Numbered from the stretch's first letter, positions 2,272 through 55,074 are shown. The stretch is DNA of 64,000 bases from a virus (IMGVR_UViG_2609459792_000007), one strand, 5' to 3'. Translations and numbers: made by a program. The notes: a model not told the origin generated them from the sequence alone.

Positions 2272-2387
2272 TCTTTTAAAAGACACCACCAGAACAACTC
2301 CCTTCCGTTTCCACTTCCAAAAACTGCCACCAGTCGCTATCATCCGCTCATTGTGATAAGTAAGTAACTACCTACCAGGTGAGCCAC

Positions 2388-3128
2388 ATGAGCCAAATCT
2401 TTTTCGATACCATCGACAACGACCAGTACGACTTCATGACAGAGTGGAATACCGCTGTTATGGACAAGTGGGTCGCTGAAAACATTGGTTTGTCGCGCTG
2501 TAAAGACGAGGCTGAACTCTTCGAGACGAAGTGGTTTGATTACCGCGACATGCATCCTCTCATGGCCACCTGTCTTTTTACGGAGGCATACAAACGTCAG
2601 TACTCAAATATCATGCTGACGCACGGTCGCGAACACTTTGAAACAGCTCCGTTCACCACCGGGTTAAAACGCCTGCCTTATCAGGAGTTGTCGACTGCCA
2701 ATAAAACGTCGCTATGGAAAGCACGCCAGTTTGCGGATCGCTATTGCTGCTCATACGACTATTTTATCTCCACCGTTCTTTCCGCAGCTGCACGACGGCT
2801 GTGGGACAAGCTGCCGCGCCCACAGCATTTATGGCAGCCAGAGCTGGTTGAGATATTCGAAGAGAAATTAGCCAGACGCGCAACAACCCGTCTGGATGAC
2901 TCTCTGGTTAGTTTTAAGCATATGGGAGACATGCAGTTCAACCCGATTCAGGAAAGCTATTTTGAGTGGATTCTGGAGCGTTTACGCGCCATCCCCCGCA
3001 GCAAGCGCATACGCGCAATTTTCTCCGCTATCTGGCTAATGGAAATCGTTCCAGAGCGCCTTATTTCCGCCCACTTTCCAGAAGAACTGGAAGAAGCACG
3101 GCGGTTTATTGATCCCCTATCTAATTAA
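2388..3128 (+). CDS. Hypothetical protein
   Basis: ORF with conserved cacATG start context at 2388 (track start 2379 is GTG); sits directly upstream of helicase. Confidence 0.5.
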   Translation: MSQIFFDTIDNDQYDFMTEWNTAVMDKWVAENIGLSRCKDEAELFETKWFDYRDMHPLMATCLFTEAYKRQYSNIMLTHGREHFETAPFTTGLKRLPYQELSTANKTSLWKARQFADRYCCSYDYFISTVLSAAARRLWDKLPRPQHLWQPELVEIFEEKLARRATTRLDDSLVSFKHMGDMQFNPIQESYFEWILERLRAIPRSKRIRAIFSAIWLMEIVPERLISAHFPEELEEARRFIDPLSN

Positions 3129-3171
3129 CTAATACTAGAAAACAATTTGTTTAAAAAACAAAGGAAAGCAC

Positions 3172-4512
3172 ATGACCGAACTTTGCCATACAGGACGCGG
3201 GCTGTCCGAAGAGTTTGATGAAGATTTCCAGAACAGACTGACGGCATATTTTTGTCGTGATCACGAGTTTCTTACTCGTGCGGGAGATCTGGTTGTGCCT
3301 AGCCAATTTGCCAATGCGGCCAATGCCATATTGGTTAATATGGTTTCGGGCTATTACCGTATGTACAAGAGCGCGCCCTCTTCATCTGCAATTCTGGATA
3401 TGCTTAAGCGTGCGAAACGCGATAAGACTATCCGTGAGGAACTATTCGCCGATGTTGTTGCTGCGTTTAAGCGCATCCTTGCAGAAAAATTGTCCGATAC
3501 CTCGTACATGGTTGACCAGGTATCAACCTTCGCAAAAAGCGTAGCGTTTGATGATGCTCTGATTAAGGCTGCTGAACTGAAAGAGAAAGGCGACTTTCAG
3601 GGGGCGATGGCAATCATGGCCAAGGTTCAGCAGATTGGATCGAACGAAGCGACCGGAATCTATGACTACTACACCTCCGCAAGTGAGCGATTGAAAGCGC
3701 GTGAATATGAGGCTTCAGAGGAGTATGTGCCAAACAGCATTACAACTGGACTCCCTCTGCTCGATAGGTTGCTGTACCAAAAAGGCTGGGCGAAGCGTGA
3801 AATGGTGCTCTTCATGGGGTTCGCTAAATCCGGTAAATCGACCGCAATGGGTGAGTTTTCCATAAACGCAACGCTTGCTGGCTACAATGTTCTGTATCTC
3901 TCGCTGGAGGTTCACACCAACATTTTGTCCGACCGTTTTGATGCAAGATTGTCGGAGACGGAAATGTCCAAGTTGGTGGAACGGCGCGATGAAGTTCATC
4001 GTAAGTTGGCAGAGTTGGGAGCCTCTAAGGGGATTGGTAGTTTGTGGGTTGTTGAGCGTCCGTCAGGAAGTATGTCACCGGCAGATCTGGACCGTATGCT
4101 TAACAGCATGAAAGCCAACGGCATGGTGCCTGACATGGTTGTTGTCGACTACGCAGATTTGATGCGTGCCAGTTATGACCTTCGTGATGATCGCGCCAAC
4201 ATTCGTAGTATCTACACCGATTTACGTGCTCTTTATGACAAGCATAACGTTGCTGGTATCACGGCGTCGCAAACAAACCGTGAAGGTGGCGCGTCAGAAG
4301 TTGCCACAATGATGCACGCTGCCGACAACATCGAAAAAGTACGTATTGCTGACCTGGTAATAACGATCAACAAAACCGAAGAAGAAGAAGCGAAAGGAGA
4401 GGCTCGTCTCTACTTTGCTGGTTCGCGTAACCAGCAGGGAGGGATCAGCATTCGCGTTAAACAAAACCTCGAACAAATGCGCTTCATTGAGCGGATCTTA
4501 GACGTTACCTAA
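3172..4512 (+). CDS. DnaB-like replicative helicase (RecA-fold ATPase)
   Basis: Walker A GFAKSGKST, Walker B-like MVVVDYADL, C-terminal RecA-like core; conserved aaaggaaagcacATG start context. Confidence 0.75.
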   Translation: MTELCHTGRGLSEEFDEDFQNRLTAYFCRDHEFLTRAGDLVVPSQFANAANAILVNMVSGYYRMYKSAPSSSAILDMLKRAKRDKTIREELFADVVAAFKRILAEKLSDTSYMVDQVSTFAKSVAFDDALIKAAELKEKGDFQGAMAIMAKVQQIGSNEATGIYDYYTSASERLKAREYEASEEYVPNSITTGLPLLDRLLYQKGWAKREMVLFMGFAKSGKSTAMGEFSINATLAGYNVLYLSLEVHTNILSDRFDARLSETEMSKLVERRDEVHRKLAELGASKGIGSLWVVERPSGSMSPADLDRMLNSMKANGMVPDMVVVDYADLMRASYDLRDDRANIRSIYTDLRALYDKHNVAGITASQTNREGGASEVATMMHAADNIEKVRIADLVITINKTEEEEAKGEARLYFAGSRNQQGGISIRVKQNLEQMRFIERILDVT

Positions 4513-4593
4513 AAAATAAGCGTGGAGAACACCTCCACGCTTGATTCATTGGTGAAACAACTTTTCTTTTGCCAAACCACAAAAGAAAAACAC

Positions 4594-5775
4594 ATGAGCC
4601 TTTATGTTATATCAACATTTAGGTTGGTCACAATATTGCCTGTTAAAAGTGGAATTATCGTGAGCGAGCTGAAAGAGCTAATTACCGAATTAGATTTTGA
4701 ACAATGGTTGGACACTGAAGGTATCGTTTATCGACGTGGAGGCGTGAGTGCTCGCGGTCGTGAAGTGAATATCAAGGAGTGTCCGGTATGCGGCAGCTCC
4801 AACTGGAAGGTATATTTCAATCTGACCAGTGGCGTCGGCAAATGCTTTGCTGGTGATCATCCCGAAGAGATTCAGTTCAATAAGCTGGTCTTCCTCAAGC
4901 ACTACAGCGGTAAATCACGACGACAGTTCGAGGAATATGTGCAGAACGCTCTTCTTTCCCAGGGGTGGGCACCAAAGAAAGAAGAGCTAGTGCTTGCAAG
5001 CACAGTCGAGTTAGAGGGGCCAGTTGCACTCCCTCGTCATTACGAGCTTCCTATAGATGGCCGTCTTCCAGACTATCTGGTTGAACGAAACATATCACCT
5101 GAAATGGCAAAGTATTTTGACCTACGATACTGCGTCGAAGGCAAGCACGCTTATGTAGATCCGTATACAGATCAGGTAAAAGGGCAGATATTCGATATGC
5201 GAGTACTGATACCGGTTTACGATCTGGATGGGGTAATGAAGACATTTCAGGGACGAGACATTACCGGTACAGCAGAACGCCGCTACCTCTTTCCTATGCA
5301 GCTTCCAGCTTCAGGTAAATTTCTCTACAACGGCCATAATGCAGTCGGCAAACAGACTGTAGTTGTCTGTGAGGGTGCGTTCGATGTTATGGGGGTCAAA
5401 CGAGCTATTTTCGACGAAGAAACATTACGTGATTACGTGGAGCCAATAGGAACGTTCGGGATGCATCTATCTGGTAACACCACTCAGGATGCAGAAGATC
5501 AGTTAGGCGCGTTCCTGACGCTCAAGGCGCGTGGGTTACGTAATGTGATCATGATGTGGGATAGTGAAAAGCAAGCTATACGCAACACTATGGCCGCAGC
5601 CAGGCGACTGACCAGTATCGGTCTTAATGTCAAAGTTGCGTGTTTGGGTGAGGAAGGACTCGACCCGGGCGGTGCAACGCCAGAACAAATTATCAAAGCC
5701 TATTATCGGGCAAAACCGTATACCAAACAGTTGGAGTTGCAAAGCAAGGTTTTGGGCATTAAGGCGCTATCGTAA
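4594..5775 (+). CDS. DNA primase (zinc-ribbon plus Toprim)
   Basis: CPVCGSS...C..GDH zinc-binding motif; Toprim-like VVVCEGAFDV and MWDSE; start chosen at cacATG 4594 rather than track start 4522. Confidence 0.65.
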   Translation: MSLYVISTFRLVTILPVKSGIIVSELKELITELDFEQWLDTEGIVYRRGGVSARGREVNIKECPVCGSSNWKVYFNLTSGVGKCFAGDHPEEIQFNKLVFLKHYSGKSRRQFEEYVQNALLSQGWAPKKEELVLASTVELEGPVALPRHYELPIDGRLPDYLVERNISPEMAKYFDLRYCVEGKHAYVDPYTDQVKGQIFDMRVLIPVYDLDGVMKTFQGRDITGTAERRYLFPMQLPASGKFLYNGHNAVGKQTVVVCEGAFDVMGVKRAIFDEETLRDYVEPIGTFGMHLSGNTTQDAEDQLGAFLTLKARGLRNVIMMWDSEKQAIRNTMAAARRLTSIGLNVKVACLGEEGLDPGGATPEQIIKAYYRAKPYTKQLELQSKVLGIKALS

Positions 5776-5850
5776 CAAGTGCCGCTAAAATAAGTAGATG
5801 ATTACTTATCTTTCTGTAAGAATACTTTCATCTGTTAGCTAGGAGTTGGT

Positions 5851-6633
5851 ATGAAAGACGAAATTCACAAATTAGCCTGCGACATCATTGATAAAACTGG
5901 TTTAGAAATCAGCGAGAGCAATCGACTAGACATCATTGAAAAAGCGGTAAAAACAGCAATGGATCATATCGCCACTCGTTTGGTTGAGATCCCGCTACCA
6001 GGGCTACCTTATCTGAAAGTTGAGTTACACGTATGGGGTGAACCTTCTTGTGCACGGCGTTCTGCATTAGTTGTTTTTATTAGCAAAGAAAACCCGCTCA
6101 GTCTTAAAGTGCAGGTTGGTGCATGGATGGATGGCAAAGTGATCTACACAAATACCGTTTTTTGTGCGCCAAACGACAGTATTATTGAAGAGGCTATTCA
6201 GGAATCACTTCTAACTATGCATAGCTTAGTTTTGCTGGAAGACAAGCAAAACTACGAAGAGTACTTACGGTCGATAAAAGGTGAGAGAACATTGTCACTT
6301 AGAGCCGATTTCGTTACCCCGACAAACCTGTTGGAAGTCTTGCTTAATAAAGGGGCTAATGATGCCGTAAATGTAATCAGAGAGAGTGAGTATGCGTCTC
6401 TTTGCGACATGTGCAAAAGCCAGTTGGATCTGGTGCATATCGTTATTGATGCTGGGAAGGCATGTGATGGCGTAATGGCGGAATTTGCTGGGAAGATGGT
6501 CAGGATTGCTAACGAATTACCGATGATAGAGCAAGAGGCTAAATCATACGCCACCAATCATGTCACAGAGCTTCTTGTCCCCTATCGCTTAGAAAGCAAT
6601 CAGCGCAAGATGATTAGCTGGGGAAGTTGGTAA
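5851..6633 (+). CDS. Hypothetical protein
   Basis: 260-aa ORF with RBS; no recognised motif. Confidence 0.45.
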   Translation: MKDEIHKLACDIIDKTGLEISESNRLDIIEKAVKTAMDHIATRLVEIPLPGLPYLKVELHVWGEPSCARRSALVVFISKENPLSLKVQVGAWMDGKVIYTNTVFCAPNDSIIEEAIQESLLTMHSLVLLEDKQNYEEYLRSIKGERTLSLRADFVTPTNLLEVLLNKGANDAVNVIRESEYASLCDMCKSQLDLVHIVIDAGKACDGVMAEFAGKMVRIANELPMIEQEAKSYATNHVTELLVPYRLESNQRKMISWGSW

Positions 6634-6689
6634 TCTCTCCGCGCGTCGTTTTTTTACGCAAACAATGATAGGTAAGTACAAGATTATTT

Positions 6690-7172
6690 ATGGCGATAGT
6701 TGTGAAAGCTGATTTGTCAAAAATCCCCTCTATTTCAGGAAATAATGGTTATTCACTTCGTTGTGAGGAAGTAAAGATAAACGGTGAGTCGGCATATTGC
6801 AGTTACTCCGTTTGCCAGCACACCATTCTTGCCTTCAAAGAAAACCGTCTTCCTCGAACTTCTTTCCAGTCGTGCGCAACCGCTATTAAAGCAGGCAAAT
6901 GCAAGGCGTTAAAAATGATGGTTGAAGAGATTCGTAAAGGAGAATCTCTGTATTTCGAAGATATGACCGCACTCATTAAGGAGGTTGAAGAACGGAATAA
7001 ACAAGCCAGAACTATAAAACGAAAACGTGACAGTGTAACGATTAATAGCATGGTTAAGAAGAGCGCCACATCACAAACAGCGATCACTGACGTGTATGCG
7101 GCGTTGCTTGAAGAAACAACAAAAGAAACACATGAGCAAATCGATCAACATATGGAGGCAAAACAACAATGA
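6690..7172 (+). CDS. Hypothetical protein (Cys-rich N-terminus)
   Basis: 160-aa ORF; overlaps ligase start. Confidence 0.4.
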   Translation: MAIVVKADLSKIPSISGNNGYSLRCEEVKINGESAYCSYSVCQHTILAFKENRLPRTSFQSCATAIKAGKCKALKMMVEEIRKGESLYFEDMTALIKEVEERNKQARTIKRKRDSVTINSMVKKSATSQTAITDVYAALLEETTKETHEQIDQHMEAKQQ

Positions 7173-8491
7173 AAAAGTTGATCGCACTTAAGCATAAGCT
7201 GGACGAAATGAAAGCTATGGGAACCAATGCAAAAAAAGAGGCATTGGCCAACATGGATGACTTTGAACAAAGCATGGTTTCATTGATGCTCAACCCTTTC
7301 ATCCGTTTTGGGGTAAAGAAATACAAAGTGGCAGAGCCGCTTAGTGAGTCCGTCCCAAGTGACGAAAAAGCCATTGATGTACTGAATAAGCTGGCCTCTC
7401 GCGAGCTGACGGGGAACGCAGCAATAGTTGCTGTTGAGTCTATCGTAGCGTCAATGTGCGCCGATGGGCAGGACGTGTTCCGTCGTTTCCTCTTAAAAGA
7501 CCCGAAAGCAGGTGTTGGGATTAGCCTATGCAACAAGGTTTTTGAGAATCCCATTCCGAAATTCGAGGTGCAGCTGGCGTCACCGTATAAAGAAAAAGGC
7601 GACAAATACCCCTTCAAGCCAAATCCTAAAGCAAAATGGCCGATGATTGGCAGTCTTAAGCTCGATGGTTTGCGAGTAATTTGCGAGGTTATTGTTGACG
7701 AGGAAGAGGTTAACTTCCTTTCTCGTACTGGTAATCCAATCACGTCTCTCGATCACCTAAAGCCAGCAATGCTCGAATTAGGCAAACTTTCAGGCCACAA
7801 ACACATCTTCTTCGATGGTGAAGGAACAGCCGGTTCATTTAACCAGTCCGTATCTGCATTGCGCAAAAAGAACGTGCAGGCAATTGGCGCTATTTATCAT
7901 GTTTTCGACTTCTTCCTACCGGAATGGCGGGCACAGGCTAAATCCAAAGAGTATGCAAAGACAGGTATGAAGCTGAAAGAGCGCCTGGCTATGCTGGTGG
8001 CGTTGTTCAAAAACGATCGCAGTGAAGGCTACGGACAAGACATTCACCTGCATCCGTTCTATATCATCCATAGCCACGAAGATTTCATCGAACGCTTTAT
8101 GAAACGCCTGGACGATAACGAAGAAGGGGAGATGGGCAAAGATCCGAACTCTGTTTACGAGTTTAAACGTACCCGCAGCTGGTGGAAGTTAAAAGACGAA
8201 GATTCAGAAGATGGTGAAATTATCGACTTTGAGCCGGGCGACCCGGACTCTGGTTTTGCCAACACACTTGGAAAAATTGTTATTCGTCTTGAAAACGGCG
8301 TCATCGTTCGTGCGAGCGGCATTAAGCATAAATATCTGGACGAGATCTGGAACAACAAAGAGAAGTACCGTGGTCGTATTGTTGAGGTTCATTGTCACGA
8401 GAAAACGCCGGATGGCAGCTTACGCCACCCACGACTGAAATGGCCGCGTTGCTTACGCGATACAGAAGATCGAATCGGAGATAAAGAATGA
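7169..8491 (+). CDS. ATP-dependent DNA ligase
   Basis: Adenylation motif KxDG in SLKLDGLRV; size 440 aa. Confidence 0.75.
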   Translation: MKKLIALKHKLDEMKAMGTNAKKEALANMDDFEQSMVSLMLNPFIRFGVKKYKVAEPLSESVPSDEKAIDVLNKLASRELTGNAAIVAVESIVASMCADGQDVFRRFLLKDPKAGVGISLCNKVFENPIPKFEVQLASPYKEKGDKYPFKPNPKAKWPMIGSLKLDGLRVICEVIVDEEEVNFLSRTGNPITSLDHLKPAMLELGKLSGHKHIFFDGEGTAGSFNQSVSALRKKNVQAIGAIYHVFDFFLPEWRAQAKSKEYAKTGMKLKERLAMLVALFKNDRSEGYGQDIHLHPFYIIHSHEDFIERFMKRLDDNEEGEMGKDPNSVYEFKRTRSWWKLKDEDSEDGEIIDFEPGDPDSGFANTLGKIVIRLENGVIVRASGIKHKYLDEIWNNKEKYRGRIVEVHCHEKTPDGSLRHPRLKWPRCLRDTEDRIGDKE

Positions 8492-9302: not shown

Positions 9303-10081
9303 AAATACAATGATAAGTATTTACTTACTTATCTTATATGTATAAGATGACTTTGTTTTCGTTGAGACGCGACTGTTTGAACTTAAATACAAGTGCAAAC
9401 GAAGAAGTCTATCTGGCAGTAGCCTAATAAGCCAAACACCAGCGAGGTCAGTTTCCAGCCTCGTTACCGAAATGGGACACACTGAGCGAGTGTGATTGCA
9501 GAACGCAGGAGGGAACATTCATGTTCCCTCCGATGAAGTAACAGAATGGGCGGTTGGTATATTTTCAACTCCATATGACTCCCGGATTCTTAGCCACTGA
9601 CCGCCCATTCTGTTACGTCATTTTGTTCAATTATGTCGTTTATACTGGGTTAAAAAGCGGCGACGTAGCCCGGCTGGTATGGTCAGCCAGCACACAACGT
9701 TGAGGCCATTACATTTTTATCAATTCTAAGGTTCTATTCACAGAGATACCGGCGAGCGTTGATATGTAACATGTTGGGCAAACATTCAATCGGAGTAGTG
9801 GCCTCAACGTTGTGAAAATAGGATAGTTGTGTAGGTTTAACCACTGTTGCCATTGGTACCTGTTTTCACAACAAATGATTCCATACATCACATTGTATAA
9901 ATTACAAAGTAGGTGCTGTCCTCAGAAACATCATCTACTTAAATAATTTGCCTTCTACTATTGAGCGAAGTCGAAAGCGTCTGGCACTAACGAAAAGTGC
10001 AAGTAGCGGTGCGTTTCCTGGCAGAAACTAACACCGCCGCGATTGGCACTGTTGAGTAATAAATACTGGCAGTGCTGAATT

Positions 10082-10156
10082 GATGGTGTAGCTCAGCGGT
10101 AGAGCAGTTGGCTGTTAACCAACTGGTCGGTGGTTCGAATCCACCCACCATCGCCA
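10082..10156 (+). tRNA. tRNA-Asn (anticodon GTT)
   Basis: Hand-folded cloverleaf: acceptor gatggtg/caccatc, D-stem gctc/gagc, anticodon stem gttgg/ccaac with loop ctGTTaa, T-arm ggtgg-ttcgaat-ccacc, CCA end. Confidence 0.85.
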
Positions 10157-10161
10157 ATTTA

Positions 10162-10248
10162 GGGGAGTTAGTCCGTAGAGGTAGCGGGGTAGACTGTAAA
10201 TCTACTGTCATGGAGACTCGGGTGGTTCGACTCCATCACTCCCCACCA
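10162..10248 (+). tRNA. tRNA-Tyr (anticodon GTA), long variable arm
   Basis: Acceptor ggggagt/actcccc, anticodon stem gtaga/tctac with loop ctGTAaa, T-arm ggtgg-ttcgact-ccatc, CCA; D-arm not cleanly canonical. Confidence 0.6.
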
Positions 10249-10252
10249 AATT

Positions 10253-21405: not shown

Positions 21406-21522
21406 TTTTTGATAGATAATAAGTAAGTACTGATCTATCATTTAACAGCTCGAAAGAGCCACGAATGAACGAAAGCCCAACGCGCATAGCGCCATCGGCC
21501 AAATCACAACAAGGAGAAACAC

Positions 21523-22608: not shown

Positions 22609-23556
22609 CCGGTGATTTATCTCTTCGTAGATGGCAATAGCCTGGGTTATTACCACCAACAATCTGACAAATTGCACAACGGCGAAATGGAAGTACAGGC
22701 TGCTTTCGGCTTTGTTAAGAACGTCCGTCGTTATGCCTCCATCCTCCATGCCCGACCTATGATTCTTTGGGATGGATTTAGTGACAAGCGTCGCGACTTT
22801 TACCCGGACTACAAAGCAAATCGCGACGACGATCCTGATATGAAAAAGATGAAGGAAGGCTTTGCTGTCCAGAAGCCATACATCCTCAAAATGATGACCG
22901 CGCTTGGTGTTAACCAAATCATTGCAAAAGATGCAGAAGCGGATGATCTGGCCGGGCTGCTGGTATCCCGCATGGCACCGCAGCCAACCGTTGAACACAT
23001 CTATCTGTTAACAGGCGATAGCGACTGGCTTCAGTTAGTTCGTGAAAACGTAAGCTGGGTAAGCCTGCGTGAAGACGCCAAAAACAAGCAGGTTAATTTT
23101 GAGCAATTTGCGGAGCTGACAGGATTCGCCACGCCTCGCGCATTTTTGGAAGCAAAAGCATTACAAGGCGATAACTCGGACAACATTAGCGGTGTTGGAG
23201 GCATTGGTGCTGGCGGTGCGAAAGAGCTGCTGCATGAATGGGGAAGTGTCGCAACGATGGTACGCGGCATCAACGACGGCTCAATCGTGGTTAATAAAGG
23301 GCGTCATAAGACCGCCTTCAACAAACTAGCGAAGAATGCCTTCAACGAGAAAACAGGCTGTCGAATGCTCGAAGCGTTCAAGAGAAACATCACGCTAATG
23401 AACCTGATTGAGACGAAGTTTCCGCCTACCGAAATCGAAACAATCAAAGGCAATCGTGACGTGAAAGCATTCGAGCAACTGTGCTACGAGCTGAATTTCC
23501 GTTCGTTCCTTGAAGACCTTGAAGTGTTTGTTCTTCCATTCGAAAGGTATTGCTAA
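22609..23556 (+). CDS. 5'-3' exonuclease / flap endonuclease (PIN plus H3TH)
   Basis: N-terminal IYLFVDGNSLGYY; H3TH-like GDNSDNISGVGGIGAGGAKELL; GTG start at 22609 follows RBS ggaagga (track start 22561 lies inside the terminator). Confidence 0.75.
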   Translation, partial: PVIYLFVDGNSLGYYHQQSDKLHNGEMEVQAAFGFVKNVRRYASILHARPMILWDGFSDKRRDFYPDYKANRDDDPDMKKMKEGFAVQKPYILKMMTALGVNQIIAKDAEADDLAGLLVSRMAPQPTVEHIYLLTGDSDWLQLVRENVSWVSLREDAKNKQVNFEQFAELTGFATPRAFLEAKALQGDNSDNISGVGGIGAGGAKELLHEWGSVATMVRGINDGSIVVNKGRHKTAFNKLAKNAFNEKTGCRMLEAFKRNITLMNLIETKFPPTEIETIKGNRDVKAFEQLCYELNFRSFLEDLEVFVLPFERYC

Positions 23557-24902: not shown

Positions 24903-24927
24903 AAGGCGTCCACAGGACGCCTTTTTT
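24903..24927 (+). terminator. Terminator after RecA-like gene
   Basis: aaggcgtcc-aca-ggacgcctt hairpin plus T6. Confidence 0.7.
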
Positions 24928-24990
24928 ATCTCTTGAAAATATATAAGTACTTACTTATCATTTTCACATAACAACCACATAGGAAAACAC

Positions 24991-29763: not shown

Positions 29764-29978
29764 GTTTACAGTAAAATTTATATAAGTTAGTATCTACCTA
29801 TCATGAAGATTTTTATTGAATACTTGTTACTCATCGTGTCAATAGCTTTTGTCATCGACTGCATTTTCACTGGTGTCATTCGTAAAGTCTTTTCCCCGGT
29901 GAACGACGTAGTCATAAACGCTTTGGCTATCGTGCTCGTATTTAATTCAGCATTTGATGTAATCAAAGAGGTGGCAGC

Positions 29979-33459: not shown

Positions 33460-33713
33460 CCCTCCAGATCGTATATTGGCGTAGATAGAATCTACGCCCC
33501 CTCAAAATAGCTCTCATAGCGTTCTACAGTGATCCTGTCTTATTTTTAGTCATACAGACAAGCAAAGTTGCGCCACGATAAATAGGTATATACTTACTTA
33601 TAAATTTTGTATATTAAGGCGCTCGTTTCATTCCTAACATACCGTTATGCATAGTTGTTTACCTCCTCATTGCTCTTAGAATTTGTATCAAAATAACCAC
33701 AAAGGAAAAACAC

Positions 33714-38257: not shown

Positions 38258-38291
38258 TTTCATTGATAGGTAAGTGCTTATCTATTAACAT

Positions 38292-38320
38292 GGGCCACTA
38301 TATTTAGTGGCCCTCTTTAT
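38292..38320 (+). terminator. Terminator after resolvase gene
   Basis: gggccacta-tattt-agtggccc hairpin then T-rich. Confidence 0.55.
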
Positions 38321-41972: not shown

Positions 41973-42842
41973 ATGAACTTTACCAAACTGACTGACCACC
42001 TGAAACTTGCCACCGATCGACTCATTGGATTTAAGCCAGAACCATATGAGTTGCATGAAGGTCATGGTGTAGCTACTGAAAGTATTTACAAGATGGTCGA
42101 TCAGTTTCATGAACTCTTCCAGCATCCGAGACGCGTTATGCCGACACCAGAGCTGCTTCGTCTCCGTGCAAGCCTGATTCATGAAGAAGCTGTAGTGGAA
42201 GGTATTCCAGCCGCAATGAATGGGGATATTGAGCAACTGCTGGATGCAATGGCCGACTTTTTATACGTTGGTGTTGGTACGATGGTCGCCATCAAAGGTG
42301 GTATTTCTACCGGCATGACCTATTACACGCAGGAACAGAGCATTGATCGCTTTATGCAGACAATTTTTGTGCCTGGTAACACTGTTTTCGATGATATGGC
42401 AATGCCATTTCAGGAAGCTCGTGAGGCGTCATGTATGCTCGAAGAGCTGGCAGATAAACTTGAGAACAAGACTGTTAAGGATTCTGAGCTGATTCAGGAA
42501 CTGCGCCGTGTCATGAACAAAATCTATGTGGCGTGCATGATGACCTATCGACTGGCTGATTTCCTCGGTATCAATGTAGTCGAGCTGGTTGGCGAAATTC
42601 ATCGGTCTAACATGACAAAATTATGGCCTGCTGATGTTGAGGAACGTCGCCAGGCTGTGGCCAACTGCAAATACGACTCTTCAGATCTGGGATTCCGCCA
42701 TGCTGATGGCACCGATAAGATGATCGGTTTTCGAATTTCCGATGGAAAGATTCTGAAGTCTCCAACCTATAGTGATGTCGATTTATCCTCCTTTGTTGAG
42801 CAAGCTAAAGCCTCGGCAATGTACGGAATGATCAAAAAATAA
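41973..42842 (+). CDS. Putative MazG-like all-alpha NTP pyrophosphohydrolase
   Basis: EExxE...D pattern in LIHEEAVVEGIPAAMNGDIEQLLDAMAD; assignment tentative. Confidence 0.35.
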   Translation: MNFTKLTDHLKLATDRLIGFKPEPYELHEGHGVATESIYKMVDQFHELFQHPRRVMPTPELLRLRASLIHEEAVVEGIPAAMNGDIEQLLDAMADFLYVGVGTMVAIKGGISTGMTYYTQEQSIDRFMQTIFVPGNTVFDDMAMPFQEAREASCMLEELADKLENKTVKDSELIQELRRVMNKIYVACMMTYRLADFLGINVVELVGEIHRSNMTKLWPADVEERRQAVANCKYDSSDLGFRHADGTDKMIGFRISDGKILKSPTYSDVDLSSFVEQAKASAMYGMIKK

Positions 42843-42910
42843 TTGTAGGTAGTTATCTATCTGTGTATATTGCGTTGGCGCGTTAAATTTCTGAAACAAC
42901 TATTCGTTTT

Positions 42911-42937
42911 TGGTGGCCTATGGCCACCATTTTTTTA
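42911..42937 (+). terminator. Terminator after MazG-like gene
   Basis: tggtggcc-tat-ggccacca hairpin plus T7. Confidence 0.7.
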
Positions 42938-43013
42938 TCTGTCTGGTCTTGTTCTCTCAATAAATGTAAACTCACGCAATGAATAAGTGGTTACTTATCT
43001 TTGTGAGGTTTTT

Positions 43014-46697: not shown

Positions 46698-46857
46698 AGC
46701 AAAAGCCTACTTTAAAGAGAGTTTAAAGTAGGCTTTCTTTTAAAGAACAGTCGCCTTTCAATCATTTCCTGCCTGTATTTAATACTTTTCCGCCTGATAG
46801 GTTTAGTCAAAATGTAGCCATCGAAACGCAAATGTAACCAAACAGAAGGAGACTTAC

Positions 46858-47667: not shown

Positions 47668-47849
47668 CGTTCCCCTACTGAAAATAAAGCCCATAGAGAG
47701 CTTTATAGTGCTGGGTAAGCTAACCCATACCCAGCACCACAAAAACGCGTCAGAGAGCTTCTCGTTTGCATTTCTGGCGCGTTTTATTTGATTGCCAGAC
47801 ATAAAATCAAATGCAAAAATAGGTATTTACTTACCTATCGAGAAAGAAG

Positions 47850-48443: not shown

Positions 48444-48465
48444 TTTGTTCTGGCGTCTGTAATTA

Positions 48466-48522
48466 GCCTGCTTCTGTATATATAAATAACTACATATTAA
48501 TTATTAATATACGGAAGCAGGC
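48466..48522. repeat. Palindromic ~55-bp element, copy 2 (contains TATAAATA)
   Basis: gcctgcttctgtatatataaata...atatacggaagcagg; matches copy at 2216-2271 including flanking tctggcgtct. Confidence 0.6.
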
Positions 48523-48604
48523 TGTTTTGTATCAGAGACTCCAGACCTGAACATCACTACAGAATCCACTAGAACCCCTTCCCAGACGCTTTAAAATCGA
48601 TTTT

Positions 48605-48859
48605 ATGAATCACTTTAAGGAAACTAACATGTCATACCCGACTAATGTCGTTGCGCTCGTAGAGAGCGATTTTCTGGCCCAGGCCCGTGAAATGATGAAA
48701 GATCGCGAGCAGGCTTTCAACTTGTACGAATGGGCAATTAAGTGCTTGCATCTTGGGGAGCATCGCGAACTTGTTGAACAGCTTTTAGGTGAGTTGATCA
48801 ACGAGGTGTTTGCCTTGAATGTTCAACTACATGGTCGAGAAAATAATCAATCGAAATGA
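48605..48859 (+). CDS. Hypothetical small protein
   Basis: 84-aa ORF; alternative ATG at 48629. Confidence 0.35.
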   Translation: MNHFKETNMSYPTNVVALVESDFLAQAREMMKDREQAFNLYEWAIKCLHLGEHRELVEQLLGELINEVFALNVQLHGRENNQSK

Positions 48860-49443
48860 TAGATAAGTACAAACTATTCATAAAGTGAATTGTAAGTGCT
48901 AAGATCTGATAGTTTCCAGTCGTAGACTGGAGACTCGACCTGATGGGTGGGGGTAAGCGTCACTGGCGTCAGGTTTAAAAAAGCTCACTACCAGCGTAGA
49001 ACCGGTGCCGTTTAGGTGTCGGGGAAGGGGGAACCAAAGTGAGCGGAGACAAGGGTCACTTTATGATTGTCGAGTCTGGGGTGTTTCGAGAGGTTGAATC
49101 CAGTACTCCCCTTCATAAAGTGTGGGAAGATCTCGGTTCTGGGGTGCTGTCATCCATAACTTCCCAAGTCTAAGCTGGCAGTAGACTTAGGCCATAACTT
49201 TTCAGGTTATGAAACGACCAGGTTGGTGAGGGATTTTTATACTCACCTCCCTGGGAGAGTATTACCTGAAAAGACAACCTCTCACTTCGTTCGAGGTGAA
49301 CTTCACTCACTTCGTTCGTTCAGTTCAGGTTTATAAAAACCTGTTCTGGGAAGTAATTTGTTTATTTTAATAATTATTAACACGCACGCGTGTGCGCACG
49401 CGCGAGGAAAAAAATCGGCGCGGCGCTTGATTCAGGAGTTTAT

Positions 49444-50034
49444 ATGACGACGAAGACACCAGCCCGATCGCAAGAAAAAACTCGCAAAAAAGCCAAAAAC
49501 AAAACTTCTCCCCGCACCAATTCCACAACGCCTGTCGTAGAGTTCAATCCCCAGCTTAAAACCGTGAAAATCTTCAGTGATGGCTCTTGCCTTAAAAATC
49601 CGGGTGGCCCGGGCGGTTACGGTATAGTTCTCCAGTATCGTGGTGAGGAACGCGAGTTCTCAGATGGTTTTCATAGCACCACCAATAACCGCATGGAGAT
49701 GATGGGGGCACTTATCGGGCTGGAGCGTTTGAAATATCCATGCAACGTTATTTTGCACTCTGATAGCCAGTATCTGAAAAACGGCATGACACTGTGGATG
49801 AAATGGTGGAAACGCAATGGATGGATGACTTCTGACAAAAAACCGGTAAAGAATGTTGATCTGTGGAAGCGTCTGGATGAGGCCGCAAGTCGACATAATG
49901 TTCGCTGGAAGTGGGTTAAAGGCCACGCCGGGCATCGTGAAAATGAAATATGTGATCGACTCGCGAAGATCGCAGCTTTTTCCGCAGCAGATATGCCTCA
50001 CAAGAAAGATATTGGTTTTGTTTATAACAAATAG
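49444..50034 (+). CDS. Ribonuclease HI
   Basis: [36 protein letters not shown]; start at ATG 49444 with RBS aggag; basic N-terminal extension. Confidence 0.85.
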
Positions 50035-50182
50035 TAAGTAAGTCTTTACCTATCATTTTAAATCATGTATCTTATCGGCGTCAGGATGACAATGTGTCGG
50101 TAAGACACAGTTCCAGGATGGAACGAGAAAGGCGGCTGGCAATCGCCAGCCGCAACTCTTTCTGACACTGGATGGAGTCCAC

Positions 50183-50677
50183 ATGGCACGTCAAACCTAT
50201 TTCACTTCTGCAACTAAACGTCCTCGTTCACTACGTCAAATTTTGGCCGAATTATTTAGCGGTCGTGTTCTGTCACGTCTTGATGAACTAGAGACTGCCG
50301 TTCGGTTGCTGAATGAACGTTTAGATAAGCAAGCGTCAGTTGTTGCGAACGTGGGGGCGATTGTTACCTCTGGTTCTTCACGCGAAGCGAAAAGTACACG
50401 GCCTTTAGTGAAGGAGAAAAACAACAAGGACAGTTCGAATGGAAAATTTTCAAAGAAAGAGGCTGAAACCAATGGCCTACGTTCTCATTATAGTTTCACT
50501 GGCGACGATAGCCGTTCCAGCCGGCCAGAGCCTTTTGATGCCGGGTTCATCCATCACCACACCTCCGTCGACGACAATTACCACCACTCCAGTAGAGCGT
50601 CCTGTCACTCTGGATGGGATGACGGTGGATGCGATACCTCAAGTTCATCCAGTTACTCAGGATCATGCTGTGACTAA
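50183..50677 (+). CDS. Hypothetical protein (low-complexity C-terminus; extent uncertain)
   Basis: ORF overlaps alternative-frame membrane ORF 50439-50690; only one frame is likely genuine over the shared stretch. Confidence 0.25.
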   Translation: MARQTYFTSATKRPRSLRQILAELFSGRVLSRLDELETAVRLLNERLDKQASVVANVGAIVTSGSSREAKSTRPLVKEKNNKDSSNGKFSKKEAETNGLRSHYSFTGDDSRSSRPEPFDAGFIHHHTSVDDNYHHSSRASCHSGWDDGGCDTSSSSSYSGSCCD

Positions 50678-50690
50678 GGCGGTTGTATGA
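50439..50690 (+). CDS. Putative small membrane protein (alternative frame)
   Basis: N-terminal TM segment AYVLIIVSLATIAVPA, Thr/Pro-rich tail; overlaps 50183 ORF. Confidence 0.3.
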   Translation: MENFQRKRLKPMAYVLIIVSLATIAVPAGQSLLMPGSSITTPPSTTITTTPVERPVTLDGMTVDAIPQVHPVTQDHAVTKAVV

Positions 50691-50884
50691 ACTGGTTTTC
50701 AAATCACTTTGGAAAAACTTGGCTGGCGATTCTGGCTTTCATAGCTCTCATGGCCGCCGGTTGGGTATCGAACATTGTAAAACTCGTTTGCTCTGGTGAT
50801 CTCCAGTTTCAGGCTGGTATGACCTTGGCTCGTGTTGTTGGGATTTTTGTTTTTCCAGTCGGTTCGGTACTTGGTTATTTCTGA
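50687..50884 (+). CDS. Small two-TM membrane protein
   Basis: 65 aa; hydrophobic segments WLAILAFIALMAAGW and VVGIFVFPVGSVLGYF. Confidence 0.4.
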   Translation: MNWFSNHFGKTWLAILAFIALMAAGWVSNIVKLVCSGDLQFQAGMTLARVVGIFVFPVGSVLGYF

Positions 50885-50977
50885 CGGTTGTTAGTGCATA
50901 TGCATTGACCGTCTTTTCGTAAGCAATTCATGTAACTAGAAAACAGCTTGTTTTAACAAATAACAAAAGGAAAGCAC

Positions 50978-51403
50978 ATGTTAGGTTTATTCAAAAAGAA
51001 AACTCGTAAAGCTGTTATCGAGGTCAAAAAAATGGAGAACCGAGATGCGGTTGAAGCCACCGTGTGGGGCGCGTACATGATCTCCTATGCCGATGGCACA
51101 TGCGACGCAAAGGAAATTTCCATTCTTGAGAAAACAATTGCAGCTCTGCCTGCGTTTTCTCCGTTTGCTGGTGAGATTGCCCAAATGAGCGCCAATATCC
51201 GTGCTCAATACGAAGCCTCACCGCGCCGCGCTAATGCCCAGGCTTTACGTGAGCTGGCTGATGTGGCCGGGACTAATGATGCAGTAGATGTACTGTGTCT
51301 GTGCCTTGATATTGCCGACCAAGACGGTATTGGCGAACAAGAAGAGCTGGCCCTGAAAAAGATCGCACAGGCGCTTCAGTTGTCACTGGATGCTTATCTC
51401 TAA
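50978..51403 (+). CDS. TerB-like domain protein
   Basis: 141 aa; ADG..D..E...L..A.. pattern and C-terminal DQDGIGEQEELALKKIA typical of TerB-like folds; assignment from motif only. Confidence 0.45.
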   Translation: MLGLFKKKTRKAVIEVKKMENRDAVEATVWGAYMISYADGTCDAKEISILEKTIAALPAFSPFAGEIAQMSANIRAQYEASPRRANAQALRELADVAGTNDAVDVLCLCLDIADQDGIGEQEELALKKIAQALQLSLDAYL

Positions 51404-51561
51404 TGCTTGAGAGATTCCGGCTTGTGACCGTCATTGCTCTTCTGGTGATGGCGGTGTTGGTGGATTTTACGGGAAAGATGATGTCTGTCATTTCTGATGG
51501 CGTCCTCATTGGTCTGGCGATCTACTTCGCTTATCCGCTAGTCCGTAAAGCAACGTGTTAA
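51403..51561 (+). CDS. Small membrane protein
   Basis: 52-aa ORF below track cutoff; overlaps TerB-like stop (TAATG); followed by hairpin gggccaaatggccc. Confidence 0.35.
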   Translation: MLERFRLVTVIALLVMAVLVDFTGKMMSVISDGVLIGLAIYFAYPLVRKATC

Positions 51562-51700
51562 TGACAAGGGCCAAATGGCCCTTGTGTTTCGTTGACCGAA
51601 ATAGAGAGTTTGCACCTTTACGTTTAGCTTGCTCCCCTTTTATGCCACATCACAATAAAGCCAATAAGAAAACAACTTGTTTAAGCATTAGGAAAAACAC

Positions 51701-52270
51701 ATGTGCAAGAAATGCAAAGCGATAGCTGATGAACAAAACGCCTTATTCGAAGAAATGGATGCTAATGAACTGGTCAAAATGTTAGCCATTCTTCGAGGAA
51801 TAGAAGACGTTTCCATATTTGAGAGAGTGGTTACAGCACTTAATTTTGAGTCCACCTTTGAAGAGCCAACTCAGGTTGTAGCTTTAGCACATCATTTCGG
51901 TGTTCATTATCTTGCTGAAAAAGAGCGCGCTGATAAGTTGCAGGCGACTTTGGATATGGTGAGCGAGACTCAACGAACTGATGACACTAACAAGAGTGAG
52001 GCGATTATTGCCAGCAAAGATCGTGAAATTGCTGGGCTTAAATCCTCTCTAACGATGTTGATGTCTGCGTTCAATCTTATGTCTTCTCAGGCGGGTTATA
52101 AAATGCCATCACTAAACAGCGATGATCCGATGGCCGTTCGTCAGCTTTTGGGAGCAATGGCCGACCAACTCGACGACACAAAGAGTCGGCTTGAAGACAT
52201 GATGCGTGAGTTAAGCCATCGACATAACCTCGCAACACAGCCACACAAAGCCTTTCAAAGCTCTAATTGA
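51701..52270 (+). CDS. Hypothetical protein (N-terminal CxxC)
   Basis: 189 aa; conserved cacATG start context; terminator-like hairpin after stop. Confidence 0.45.
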   Translation: MCKKCKAIADEQNALFEEMDANELVKMLAILRGIEDVSIFERVVTALNFESTFEEPTQVVALAHHFGVHYLAEKERADKLQATLDMVSETQRTDDTNKSEAIIASKDREIAGLKSSLTMLMSAFNLMSSQAGYKMPSLNSDDPMAVRQLLGAMADQLDDTKSRLEDMMRELSHRHNLATQPHKAFQSSN

Positions 52271-52325
52271 TCTGATATGGCCGCATGATCGGCCATATTG
52301 TGTTGATAAAAAACAAGGATGAAAA

Positions 52326-52607
52326 ATGGCATACGGTACAGGGATTTACAACAATAAAGGAATTAACGTTACTGGCTTCCTTACTCCTATTTTTTTTCTT
52401 GATCGATTTACTGCGTCATCAGGCTCTAAGACGTACTCCAATCCGCCACCGGGTAAATCGCTACATGCCGTGTGGTCATTGATGCCTCTTAACAACGACA
52501 ACTACATTAATTTACCTGTTCCAACAGTTACTATTAATGGAAATACGGTTAGTTGGTCAAATTTATATACGGGGCTTGGTTCTTACATATACACATACTG
52601 GGGATAA
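52326..52607 (+). CDS. Hypothetical Asn/Ser/Thr/Tyr-rich protein (AT-rich island)
   Basis: 93-aa ORF in low-GC segment. Confidence 0.35.
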   Translation: MAYGTGIYNNKGINVTGFLTPIFFLDRFTASSGSKTYSNPPPGKSLHAVWSLMPLNNDNYINLPVPTVTINGNTVSWSNLYTGLGSYIYTYWG

Positions 52608-52609
52608 TT

Positions 52610-53224
52610 ATGTTCGGGATGTCAATTACTCAATCAGATGGAAGTTTGTGGATGAGTCCAGAATTTACTCCGCAAAATCTGATTAATAAAGGGACAATGT
52701 CTACATCTAAAGGTTCTGTTTTTCAAACATCAATCCCATCAAACAAATCATGCTTTTTCTTCATAAAAAGCAGTAATAAGGCGAACATGATGTTTATTCA
52801 TGAGCATAGTAACGGATACAATGCTCTCAGATTGCATCAGGTAAATGGTAGCCCCGGAACAATAACAGTTTATGCTTTTTCTGATATGGTGTTACCACAT
52901 TCTGGCTATGGCATTGCCATGTATAACAGCGCAGGCGCAATGGTGTATCACGGTGAGATGATGCCCCTTGATGCGAAACTTATCACTATTTCTGACCCTC
53001 AATTTACAATAGATATGGGGTATCCATGTGCGGTAATGCCTGCTATGGTTGGGGTATATAACTATAGACGAACCGATTACGACAGACCTGTCTATGTAAC
53101 AATGACAGGTGCAACTGGAAACCAAGTATATAACGGTCAATGGTATTCCGGTAATGTCACATGGGATATTAAGAAGATTTATACAAACAAAATTCTGGTG
53201 ATAAATACCTCCAAGTATGATTAG
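52610..53224 (+). CDS. Hypothetical Asn/Ser/Thr/Tyr/Gly-rich protein (AT-rich island)
   Basis: ORF starting at ATG 52610 (track start 52553 runs back into the upstream gene); low-GC codon usage. Confidence 0.4.
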   Translation: MFGMSITQSDGSLWMSPEFTPQNLINKGTMSTSKGSVFQTSIPSNKSCFFFIKSSNKANMMFIHEHSNGYNALRLHQVNGSPGTITVYAFSDMVLPHSGYGIAMYNSAGAMVYHGEMMPLDAKLITISDPQFTIDMGYPCAVMPAMVGVYNYRRTDYDRPVYVTMTGATGNQVYNGQWYSGNVTWDIKKIYTNKILVINTSKYD

Positions 53225-53327
53225 CCAATGCCTTTATTTGAAGGATTGCCTGTTTATTTCTATTTAGTACCTTTTCATTTTTGAAATAATTGCACCATTA
53301 AACAAATCACTTCTTAATGGTGCAATT

Positions 53328-55013
53328 ATGAATACAGCCCTTTCCATCATCGACGATGCCAACTCAAACACTGCTATCGACTATCGGCAGGAAATGAACG
53401 TCATCCACGAAATTGTGGCCGAGTGCGAGAAAGAGATCGCCTTCATGTATCAGGTACACGACTTCGTTTATGGCGACGAACGCCACAACATGATTAATCG
53501 CCTGCTGAGACTAAACCATCGACCAGATGAAGATCGCTCGCGTTTAAATCGAGGTTGGTTGGATAAAGTCGATCTGGAATGGGTGAAACAGAATATTTGG
53601 GCCGAGTACTGGAGGAAGGTCACGGACATGACTAACGTTTTGCTGATCATGCCAGCTTCCCGTCGAGATGAGTGGCGCGAGCAGTTTATAGAGGGCAAAC
53701 AGGAAGTCATCAAAACTGACAGAACCGGCTACCAGATGAAGGTTAAAGAGTTCGTTGGTGTACCGGAGTTCAAAGCAGAAACGGTCATACCCACGATGCT
53801 TAATTTGCTGAATGACAGGCACAAATATCTCTCTGAGCGCGTGTATGGCTTGTTTAAGGCGCTGAGTCCTGCGCACAAGACAAATAAGACAAACGGTTTC
53901 AGCGAACGTCTGATAATCGCTGACTGCATTTCTGATTTCTGGCGGGACAGCGTTAGTGTGAACTATCGCAAAGAGGACTATATCGACGATCTGCGTGTCT
54001 TGCTTCATTTCTTCGCGCACAAAGAATTTATTACCATCAACCGCACTGCTGAGGTGCTATCAGCTGCGTATCGGGCAAACGACTGCCAGACCGGTGACTG
54101 GATGAACGTCGATGGAAATCTAATGCGCGTGAAGATGTTCAAGAACGGCAACGTTCACTTTGAAATACATCCTGACGTGGCCTGGAAGTTGAATGAGGTG
54201 CTGGCTTACAGTATGCCTGCTGCAATCCCCGCGCCATGTCGCACCGCGCCAAAAACACGGGCACCAAAGCAGTTCGGTTTAATCCAGAAGACGATCTCCG
54301 TGCCGGTTCGCACTGCGCTTCGTGACGGGCGATTGAGCAAAGACAAAGGCGTATGGTACTTCTCTGATTCAGCTCTCCAGAAGTCGCAGGTGGAAGAGCT
54401 TGAGCGCACACTGAGCTTCATTGGCGGCGTGCAGGAGAAAAAGCACTGGCAGTTCCCGTATGACATCGACCATACGCTAAATACGATTGTGGCTACCGGT
54501 TTAATACCGGATACAAAATCACACCAGTTCTACCCTACCCCACGCTTGATTGCTGAGTACGTTGCCAGAGCCACTGAATTGAAGCCTGGTGAGAAGCTGC
54601 TGGAGCCTCAAGCCGGACGTGGGGATCTTCTGGCCTATATTAACGCCGATCTGGAAGATGTTACCTGCATAGAAATCGCATCTCTCTTCGCTGATATCCT
54701 GCGTGGAAAAGGGTATACGAACACGATTTGCTGCGACTTCATAAAGTGGTCTGAGGACAACGCAGGTTATCAGTTCGACAAAATCGTTATGAACCCGCCG
54801 TACTCGCTTGGTCGTCATAAAGAGCACACGCTGGCTGCGCTGGGGCATCTGAAAGTCGGCGGGCGTCTTGTAGCAGTATTGCCGGGCACTGCGCCAATAC
54901 TGGACTGGATGACGATGGATAATTACGTTTATGCCAGAGGGAAGTCGTTTACCAACGAGTTTGAAGACACAGGGATCACAGTCAGCGTATACGTTTTCAA
55001 ACGCGTTAAATGA
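53328..55013 (+). CDS. DNA methyltransferase, NPPY-type, with large N-terminal domain of unknown function
   Basis: C-terminal AdoMet motif LEPQAGRGDL followed by IVMNPPYS; ~400-aa N-terminal region unassigned. Confidence 0.6.
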   Translation: MNTALSIIDDANSNTAIDYRQEMNVIHEIVAECEKEIAFMYQVHDFVYGDERHNMINRLLRLNHRPDEDRSRLNRGWLDKVDLEWVKQNIWAEYWRKVTDMTNVLLIMPASRRDEWREQFIEGKQEVIKTDRTGYQMKVKEFVGVPEFKAETVIPTMLNLLNDRHKYLSERVYGLFKALSPAHKTNKTNGFSERLIIADCISDFWRDSVSVNYRKEDYIDDLRVLLHFFAHKEFITINRTAEVLSAAYRANDCQTGDWMNVDGNLMRVKMFKNGNVHFEIHPDVAWKLNEVLAYSMPAAIPAPCRTAPKTRAPKQFGLIQKTISVPVRTALRDGRLSKDKGVWYFSDSALQKSQVEELERTLSFIGGVQEKKHWQFPYDIDHTLNTIVATGLIPDTKSHQFYPTPRLIAEYVARATELKPGEKLLEPQAGRGDLLAYINADLEDVTCIEIASLFADILRGKGYTNTICCDFIKWSEDNAGYQFDKIVMNPPYSLGRHKEHTLAALGHLKVGGRLVAVLPGTAPILDWMTMDNYVYARGKSFTNEFEDTGITVSVYVFKRVK

Positions 55014-55074
55014 TAGGTAAATACTTACTTAATTTGTGTAAGAATGTAATAACTAAACGATAAGAGAAAAACAC

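Follow-up and report, generated by a model that had tools for sequence, protein, structure and literature searches.

In the phage-plasmid P1 a single repressor, C1, acts through many operators dispersed across a plasmid prophage of ~100 kb, each overlapping the promoter of its own lytic operon; Oref, Omat, Ossb, Oc4, OrepL and Olpa are annotated in this way in the P1 record. The P1 operators are asymmetric 17-mers read by monomeric C1, and the late operons are controlled indirectly via Lpa, whose box is a 9-bp inverted repeat (AAGTNACTT) with arms spaced by 1 nucleotide (nt), at a fixed 4 nt upstream of the -10 hexamer (centre -22). The box read by T4 MotA is asymmetric and lies at -30, a fixed 11-13 nt from the -10. 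Lambdoid CI and Cro, helix-turn-helix (HTH) proteins of the HTH_XRE type, use palindromic operators of 14-18 base pairs (bp) with independently conserved half-sites, at one or two immunity regions. In mycobacteriophages tens of repressor sites, the stoperators, lie in short intergenic spaces genome-wide, late genes included; they are asymmetric 13-14-mers, stand in a single orientation relative to transcription and act on elongation, and those of L5 and Bxb1 were reportedly described by Brown et al. in the EMBO Journal in 1997. Here we describe a palindrome that recurs between the genes of a 64,000-nt stretch of viral DNA (IMGVR_UViG_2609459792_000007; the whole stretch is called the window below), which belongs to an SSU5-like phage-plasmid. 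With a probability of roughly 55%, we read this palindrome as an operator on most lytic promoters of the element, bound by a dimeric repressor, most likely an XRE-family protein that the element encodes, and silencing the virus during its plasmid life.

The consensus proposed by an earlier, sequence-only reading of the window, taken literally with its free gap, has a single match and was therefore replaced. The motif is best described as an inverted repeat of 7-2-7 form, RTARGTA-NN-TACYTAY, whose phased flanks are often GATA...TATC. Allowing at most one mismatch to its core (TARGTANNTACYTA; TARGTA-NN-TACYTA), the window contains 15 matches at 13 distinct sites, against 0.22 expected from dinucleotide shuffles; at most two mismatches give 31 matches against 4.9 expected by chance. 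The sequence-only reading had made its proposal depend on an excess over the expectation for AT content, and the excess holds when intergenic DNA alone is modelled with its own first-order AT-rich composition (13 observed, 0.13 expected). The hexamers ATAAGT, TAGGTA, TAAGTA and TACTTA are within the top five intergenic-enriched hexamers of the window, and in a scan with a position weight matrix (PWM) every site above 20 bits is intergenic, the top fully coding match reaching 10 bits. The individual copies cited in that reading exist, within 1-4 nt of where it placed them (GATAAGTATTTACTTACTTATC lies at 9312-9333 rather than 9311-9332), and its figure of at least 15 copies was roughly correct, there being 14 strong sites and 3-6 weak or half sites. 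Its placement of the copies 20-80 bp upstream of genes describes only part of them: the distance to the start codon varies between overlap and 226 nt, and the majority follow closely on the preceding gene, 9 of 14 starting 0-23 nt past the upstream stop codon. About 12 of the 48 called intergenic gaps of at least 25 nt hold sites. When ATAAGTANNTACTTAT was scanned in 185,579 genomes, the matches listed were scattered single chance matches, and no description of the motif was found in the searchable literature.

Megablast identified the window as the replication and nucleotide-metabolism half of the phage-plasmid, with 96-98% identity to Escherichia phage Cyrano (pLF82) and to many ~110 kb plasmids of E. 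coli and E. albertii, ~80% identity to Salmonella phage SSU5 and ~79% to Klebsiella relatives. Gene identities, assigned by comparison with the Cyrano annotation, give the order parA; helicase, primase and ligase; a tRNA cluster; an integrase gene with a divergent XRE-type repressor gene; cobT/cobS, DNA polymerase III alpha, uvsY, a gp32-like single-stranded DNA-binding protein (SSB), recA and repA; and sbcCD, ruvC, nrdAB, thyX, dhfr and dam, followed by ea-type genes. Nearly all lytic genes of the window are on the plus strand. Cyrano has ~23 sites over its whole genome, of which six belong to the structural module (close to the end of the portal gene, behind the capsid gene, and before the major tail, tail fibre and holin genes), and SSU5 has 24, at orthologous intergenic positions. 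One site lies within the portal gene in Cyrano and SSU5 alike. Pairwise alignments show the element kept while the neighbouring intergenic sequence has diverged, and it is also kept across 80 related IMG/VR loci, whose SSB is 77-100% identical to that of the window. No site adjoins the plasmid-state genes repA and parA in the window, and no motif copy lies near the parB genes.

The count matrix of 18 Cyrano sites describes a symmetric element of ~24 bp with an invariant centre, T-A-R-G-T-A-N-N-T-A-C-Y-T-A, and weaker flanks. On neither side of the element is there a position conserved at a fixed distance, which rules out a fixed downstream -10. TA steps recur every 4 bp through its entire ~24 bp (TAnnTAnGTAnnTACnTAnnTA), and the number of RGTA/TACY units is unequal between the arms, so that the best dyad axis is displaced by +/-2 nt from site to site. 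Variation in one arm is independent of that in the other: at one variable mirrored position Watson-Crick pairs occur 12 times and at another 15 times, where 16.5 and 18.0 are expected, and A-C combinations are common. Predicted RNA folding is weak (0 to -8.3 kcal/mol) and leaves the motif unfolded in three sites; an Rfam search of the window matched tRNAs only and returned nothing for the motif. Independent arms, weak hairpins and the absence of an Rfam match favour a double-stranded DNA sequence read by a symmetric protein over a hairpin.

The symmetry of the core makes the opposite strand a fair control for promoter scores. In a sigma-70 scoring scan around each site the best score was 9.25 on the gene strand and 6.77 on the opposite strand in Cyrano (Wilcoxon p=0.0017), and 10.0 and 7.5 in SSU5 (p=0.0004), with identical hexamer pairs at sites in the two phages. 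A separate, stricter promoter scan of 60 kb, made in three 20-kb pieces, gave 18 plus-strand promoter-like matches, 6 of which fall on sites (binomial p=5e-7); over positions 1-60000 such matches reach about half their frequency in shuffled sequence (15 vs 31, 23 vs 30 and 13 vs 31). Site centres lie between ~-45 and +17 relative to the predicted starts, at motif-to-(-10) distances of 6 to 19 nt, and some sites are at or past the predicted start. The element covers the -35 region at sites 9313..9328, 15837..15852 and 50034..50053, the spacer or -10 at 24943..24958, 38266..38281 and 42845..42860, the -10 and start at 29786..29801, and the start at 47819..47834, before dam; site 2360..2375 is at about +17 of its predicted promoter (hexamers in Table 1). 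The motif itself does not appear to be a promoter, yet it seems to be located on predicted sigma-70-type promoters that face the genes, in variable register. This variability argues for an operator rather than an activator site, since an activator replacing the -35 contact needs fixed geometry. The sequence-only reading had offered both an operator for an element-encoded regulator and a specialised promoter class. The latter finds no support, as a fixed-distance promoter element is absent, whereas the former is favoured by dyad symmetry, independent arms, predicted promoter overlap at variable register and a related palindrome over the predicted transcription start of the XRE gene. Its remark that the palindrome does not resemble a -35/-10 pair applies to the core and fails for the flanks (TTGATA, TATCAT) and adjoining hexamers, as in TTGAAA-17-TATCAT at 24933-24961.

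Per-gene RNA-seq of the LF82/Cyrano lysogen in five conditions (PMC9928086) places the site-flanked Cyrano genes at background, with the toxin-antitoxin genes, parA, repA and the XRE ortholog CYRAN_45 (10x background) expressed. Calculated from these values, expression falls 9-fold from CYRAN_30 to the silent CYRAN_31 across the ortholog of site 2360..2375, and the mean step over 18 site-bearing junctions is negative in lysogen conditions. In condition B6 it is -1.32 at site junctions and +0.11 at other gaps of at least 40 nt (p=0.009), a comparison in which hairpin terminators share 5 of the 18 junctions and counts are close to the floor. In the macrophage 6 h samples, log2 expression rises by 3.6 from CYRAN_55 to CYRAN_56, by 3.65 from CYRAN_59 to CYRAN_60, by 2.5 from CYRAN_11 to CYRAN_12 and by 1.2 from CYRAN_3 to CYRAN_4 (with a further 1.6 to CYRAN_5). 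These rises, of 6-12-fold, coincide exactly with the junctions bearing the best predicted promoters, the first two corresponding to sites 24943..24958 and 29786..29801 of the window, and support real promoters at the sites that are silent in the plasmid state. CYRAN_34, downstream of the ortholog of the deviant site 5790-5811, is leaky in lysogens, which fits the prediction for a weak operator.

The most likely binder is the XRE protein encoded at 12762-13148, put forward here as a candidate. It matches Pfam HTH_19 at E=0.0015, below the curated cut-off, and PHROG 8 (transcriptional regulator) at E=7e-12. A five-helix HTH is predicted, and the modelled domain resembles dimeric regulators of the Cro, C-protein and HigA types (C.AhdI and 434 Cro, TM 0.77-0.79, target-normalised); a sequence search of solved structures with the XRE protein gave zero matches. 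No other recognisable HTH of the repressor type in the window is expressed in lysogens. The palindrome over its predicted start, GGTAAGTGCTTACC, has 12 nt in common with site 38266..38281 and is conserved in lineages where XRE is only 57-69% identical. Homologues read from E. coli, E. fergusonii, Salmonella, Cronobacter, Citrobacter, Enterobacter, Klebsiella and Raoultella have an overall identity of 56-79%, and 11 of the 12 sequences share an identical recognition helix, NNLSLIKSGK, one Klebsiella-lineage variant differing at 3 positions. The motif is unchanged in the same lineages. An invariant helix with an invariant motif is expected if one protein must read ~25 sites; with both invariant, motif-helix co-variation across lineages offers nothing to correlate. 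All 55 XRE matches come from the same phage-plasmid group, and none from unrelated elements. Divergent from XRE lies the gene of an acidic protein (p13400), whose ortholog CYRAN_46 is up ~85-fold in the macrophage 6 h samples, alongside XRE and integrase; it is a possible antagonist of the repressor, that is, a candidate anti-repressor. Two other proteins were considered as binders and rejected: the 'transcriptional regulator' CYRAN_114 (Cyrano 22781-23302, outside the window) is an FljA-like repressor of phase-1 flagellin (PF03614, E=1e-80), and a 'regulator' annotated on plasmids turned out to be the gp32-like SSB. The S24 protein at window 61208-61597 is UmuD-like, and its ortholog is strongly expressed in lysogens.

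If the palindrome is such an operator, each copy would overlap a sigma-70-type promoter at its -35, its spacer, its -10 and start, or the first 20 nt of the transcript, and bound repressor would exclude or block host RNA polymerase at ~25 places simultaneously. The replication, nucleotide-metabolism and structural genes would then stay silent while the element replicates as a plasmid, and loss of the repressor would release all operons together. The weaker palindrome on the predicted start of XRE itself would permit autoregulation.

Several observations weigh against this interpretation, and some of them speak for another binder acting at the same operators or roadblocks, such as an unannotated small protein, a ParB/KorB-like regulator from outside the window or a host factor, which we consider unlikely. 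The promoters at the sites are predicted ones, and the RNA-seq values are near the detection floor and count as supporting evidence only; co-variation with XRE mRNA for genes downstream of sites is weak and falls short of significance (r 0.68 vs 0.61, p=0.28), with a marginal B1-B6 contrast (p=0.03). The arms are 6 apart at 5790-5811 and 2 apart elsewhere, and a rigid dimer should not accept both spacings together with a shifting axis; the 4-nt phasing is likewise odd for a simple HTH dimer. GGTAAGTGCTTACC scores just 10.9 bits in the motif PWM, with ~5 two-mismatch matches expected by chance in the window, and the main divergent promoter beside XRE carries half-sites only. The element encodes two ParB_N proteins outside the window, and SSU5 retains all sites without XRE. 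The region of SSU5 around 42600-42760 lacks the integrase-XRE-p13400 module, and SSU5 lacks the UmuD-like gene as well; relatives 94-95% identical to SSU5 carry the module, so the loss looks recent and the retained sites argue strongly neither way. Another binder would nevertheless have to be reconciled with XRE as the only recognisable lysogen-expressed repressor-type HTH, with the FljA-like and gp32-like nature of the remaining annotated 'regulators', with parB genes that have no nearby site and with a recognition helix in XRE as invariant as the motif. A phage-specific promoter class, in which an activator of the element binds the palindrome, replaces the -35 contact and turns on middle or late genes, in the manner of P1 Lpa at the -22 box or T4 MotA at the -30 box, is doubtful. 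P1 late promoters have AAGT(G/T)ACTT 4 nt before the -10, with half-site letters, AAGT/ACTT, identical to those found here; at many sites a good -35 is missing and a -10-like hexamer comes next, in some cases with TGn; the window is depleted of canonical promoters; and the lytic phage SSU5 keeps the sites. An activator is at odds, however, with the scatter of site centres from -45 to +17, with three sites at most 16 nt from an ATG and with several sites in complete -35/-10 pairs that need no activator (TTGAAA-17-TATCAT, TTGATA-17-TAACAT), and no Lpa homologue was found by tblastn (best E=0.29, outside the window).

The palindrome could in principle act as an RNA hairpin between genes, in processing, stability, termination or translational control, as its symmetry, its position directly after stop codons, the terminator hairpins adjoining some copies and the tendency of lysogen expression to fall across sites would allow. 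We regard this as very improbable: compensatory changes are absent, with A-C mismatches common at the variable pairs, folding is weak and fails to include the motif in three sites, Rfam gives no match, the sequence of both arms rather than their pairing is conserved, and a motif variant lies on the minus-strand XRE promoter. Equally hard to credit is a gene-boundary sequence that binds no protein, either an all-frame stop cassette (TAAGTAAGTAA) or a junction of recombination modules. The 4-nt TAAG/TAGG repeat does give stops in several frames, and sites frequently include or abut the upstream stop codon, but the best site (9312-9333) has a stop in one plus-strand frame only, stop codons do not need the strict GTA-NN-TAC core, orthologous sites are conserved in place and not at mosaic junctions, and one lies within the portal gene. 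A more speculative and, in our view, improbable proposal is that the run of TA steps marks a new promoter-specificity or architectural element, at which a protein of the element, perhaps a distant analogue of P1 Lpa, tolerates several registers and spacings, insulates operons in the plasmid state and licenses promoters in the lytic state. The dispersed operator read by a dimeric repressor is the interpretation we prefer, and the sites on which it is based are listed in Table 1.

Table 1. Copies of the palindrome in the window, with the candidate repressor gene and its divergent neighbour.
Feature	Sequence	Position	Strand	Surroundings
Site	GTAAGTAACTACCTAC	2360..2375, extended 2353-2378		~17 nt past weak predicted promoter; 16 nt before ATG of first gene of helicase/primase operon
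Deviant site	ATAAGTAGATGATTACTTATC	5790..5811		Perfect arms spaced by 6; 2-spaced core 5794-5809 has 2 mismatches; then TGtAAGAAT
Weak site or half-site	GATAGGTAAGTACAAGATTAT	6669..6690		PWM 14.6
Site	ATAAGTATTTACTTAC	9313..9328, extended 9312-9333		Overlaps -35 of predicted TTTACT-17-TAAGAT; ahead of tRNA cluster
XRE-family HTH repressor, candidate binder		12762..13148	minus	128 aa; ortholog CYRAN_45
Perfect palindrome	GGTAAGTGCTTACC	13179..13192		Over predicted start of XRE promoter TTTACA-16-TAATAT (13222..13195, minus); 2-mismatch motif variant
Acidic protein (p13400), 70 aa		13400..13612	plus	Divergent from XRE; no HTH, DNA-binding signature or Pfam match
Site	ATAAGTAACTACTTAC	15837..15852		Conserved TGgTATATT (extended -10) 13 nt later; ahead of cobS
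Site	ATAAGTAAGTACTGAT	21419..21434, extended palindrome 21411-21439		Within TAGATA-17-TATCAT; ahead of gp32-like SSB gene
Site	ATAAGTACTTACTTAT	24943..24958		Spacer and -10 of TTGAAA-17-TATCAT (24933-24961); directly past terminator 24903-24923
Site	GTTAGTATCTACCTAT	29786..29801		Over -10 and start of TTTACA-17-TAGTAT (29765-29793); downstream open reading frame seems leaderless
Site	ATAGGTATATACTTAC	33582..33597		13 nt before TATATT; ahead of sbcD
Site	ATAGGTAAGTGCTTAT	38266..38281		Spacer of TTGATA-17-TAACAT (38263-38291); then hairpin 38292-38313; ahead of nrdA
Site	GTAGGTAGTTATCTAT	42845..42860		Spacer of TTGTAG-17-TATATT
Site	ATAAGTGGTTACTTAT	42983..42998		Second site in intergenic region of site 42845..42860; ahead of thyX
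Site	ATAGGTATTTACTTAC	47819..47834		Predicted start of TTGCCA-17-(TGc)AAAAAT (47792-47820); 16 nt before dam ATG
Weak site	GATAGATAAGTACAAACTATTCAT	48860..48883		Ortholog in SSU5 is a good site
Site	GTAAGTAAGTCTTTACCTAT	50034..50053		Right arm is -35 of TTTACC-17-TATCTT
Site	ATAGGTAAATACTTAC	55013..55028		Then TGtAAGAAT; ahead of ead/ea22-like genes

Further features were observed around the sites. A second short motif, TRTAAGAW, has 8 plus-strand copies, at 203, 5815, 9341, 11597, 15873, 20945, 40702 and 55037. Seven of the 8 are intergenic, and that at 9341 overlaps only a small, probably spurious, minus-strand open reading frame call. The seven copies with a nearby start codon lie 29-67 nt before it, and four stand near a palindrome at variable distance (6, 9, 13 and 21 nt); TRTAAGAW may be a -10 variant. 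The open reading frame of 59 amino acids at 29803 lacks a Shine-Dalgarno sequence and has its ATG ~7-10 nt past the -10 of TTTACA-17-TAGTAT, an arrangement kept in all lineages; it is probably leaderless. Hairpin terminators at 42911-42929 and 50132-50153 follow the predicted promoters of sites 42845..42860 and 50034..50053 within 50-80 nt, and the segments 42866-42929 and 50068-50153 may represent short RNAs or attenuators upstream of thyX and the gene at 50183. Between the window and SSU5 the leader of the gp32-like SSB gene (21440-21522) is highly conserved, above the level of other intergenic DNA, and it may, by analogy with T4 gene 32, be an autoregulatory RNA. Conservation in SSU5 also extends to the leader past site 9313-9328, ahead of the tRNA cluster (10082-10639), which encodes Asn(gtt), Tyr(gta), Thr(tgt) and Ser(tga). 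A degenerate palindrome is contained in the AT-rich loop of an inverted repeat of ~60 nt (GCCTGCTTCTGTATATATAAATAA...ATATACGGAAGCAGG) that is present in two copies, at 2216-2275 and 48465-48525.

SSU5-like phage-plasmids, a group with pHCM2 and pLF82/Cyrano among its members, occur commonly in E. coli, Salmonella, Klebsiella, Enterobacter and Cronobacter, and resistance genes are present on some of them. We found no account in the searchable literature of regulation in the SSU5 group or of how its lytic programme of roughly 100 kb is silenced. If the operator interpretation is correct, this widespread and clinically relevant group gains a testable regulon map, ~25 promoter-operator modules with coordinates, together with a named candidate repressor. 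With operator and recognition helix the same in every lineage examined, elements from different genera should then be homo-immune. SSU5 is described in the literature as virulent, and its lack of the integrase-XRE-p13400 module fits this reported behaviour; loss of the int-XRE module would explain the lytic behaviour of SSU5.

Compared with the described systems, the element has a layout like that of P1, with dispersed sites on separate predicted lytic promoters (14 strong in the window, ~23 in Cyrano). It differs in that the sites are dyad-symmetric and unrelated in sequence to the C1 operators, in that the candidate repressor is a small XRE-type HTH protein unrelated to C1, and in that sites also lie within the structural operon. 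Like stoperators, the sites are numerous and occupy short intergenic spaces genome-wide, late genes included, and lysogen expression tends to drop across them; in contrast, they are symmetric and most overlap predicted promoters, and the roadblock action hinted at by the expression steps is confounded by nearby terminators. The likeness to lambdoid CI/Cro lies in the predicted five-helix fold, in a palindrome with independently conserved half-sites that overlaps, by prediction only, core promoter elements or the start, in an element-encoded XRE-type HTH expressed in the lysogen, and in the divergent layout of repressor and lytic genes; it may extend to the palindrome on the repressor's own predicted promoter (a 2-mismatch, 10.9-bit match). 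Here, however, the operators spread over ~25 promoters, XRE has no S24 peptidase domain, its divergent partner is an acidic 70-aa protein without HTH, and neither operator nor recognition helix has diversified between genera. The sites share with P1 Lpa promoters the half-site letters AAGT/ACTT and a palindrome upstream of the -10 in promoters without a -35, whereas their arms are spaced by 4 nt (AAGT-ANNT-ACTT) and the gap to the -10 is not fixed. They are symmetric and variably placed where the MotA box is neither, and do not show the features of MotA middle promoters; no MotA or AsiA was found in the subset of proteins scanned, a search that was not exhaustive. Intrinsic terminators have a G+C-rich stem and a U tract, whereas the hairpins predicted here are weak, A+U-rich and without covariation, and KorB/ParB-type sites, palindromes read by a protein of the ParB family, are typically also found near par genes, whereas the motif copies are not near the two ParB_N genes. 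As defining features of the C1, stoperator and Lpa families are absent, we do not assign the element to any of them. By analogy, the arrangement would work like the dispersed C1 operators of P1, with a genome-wide intergenic spread like that of stoperators and a protein and site that are likely of the Cro/CI-type HTH.

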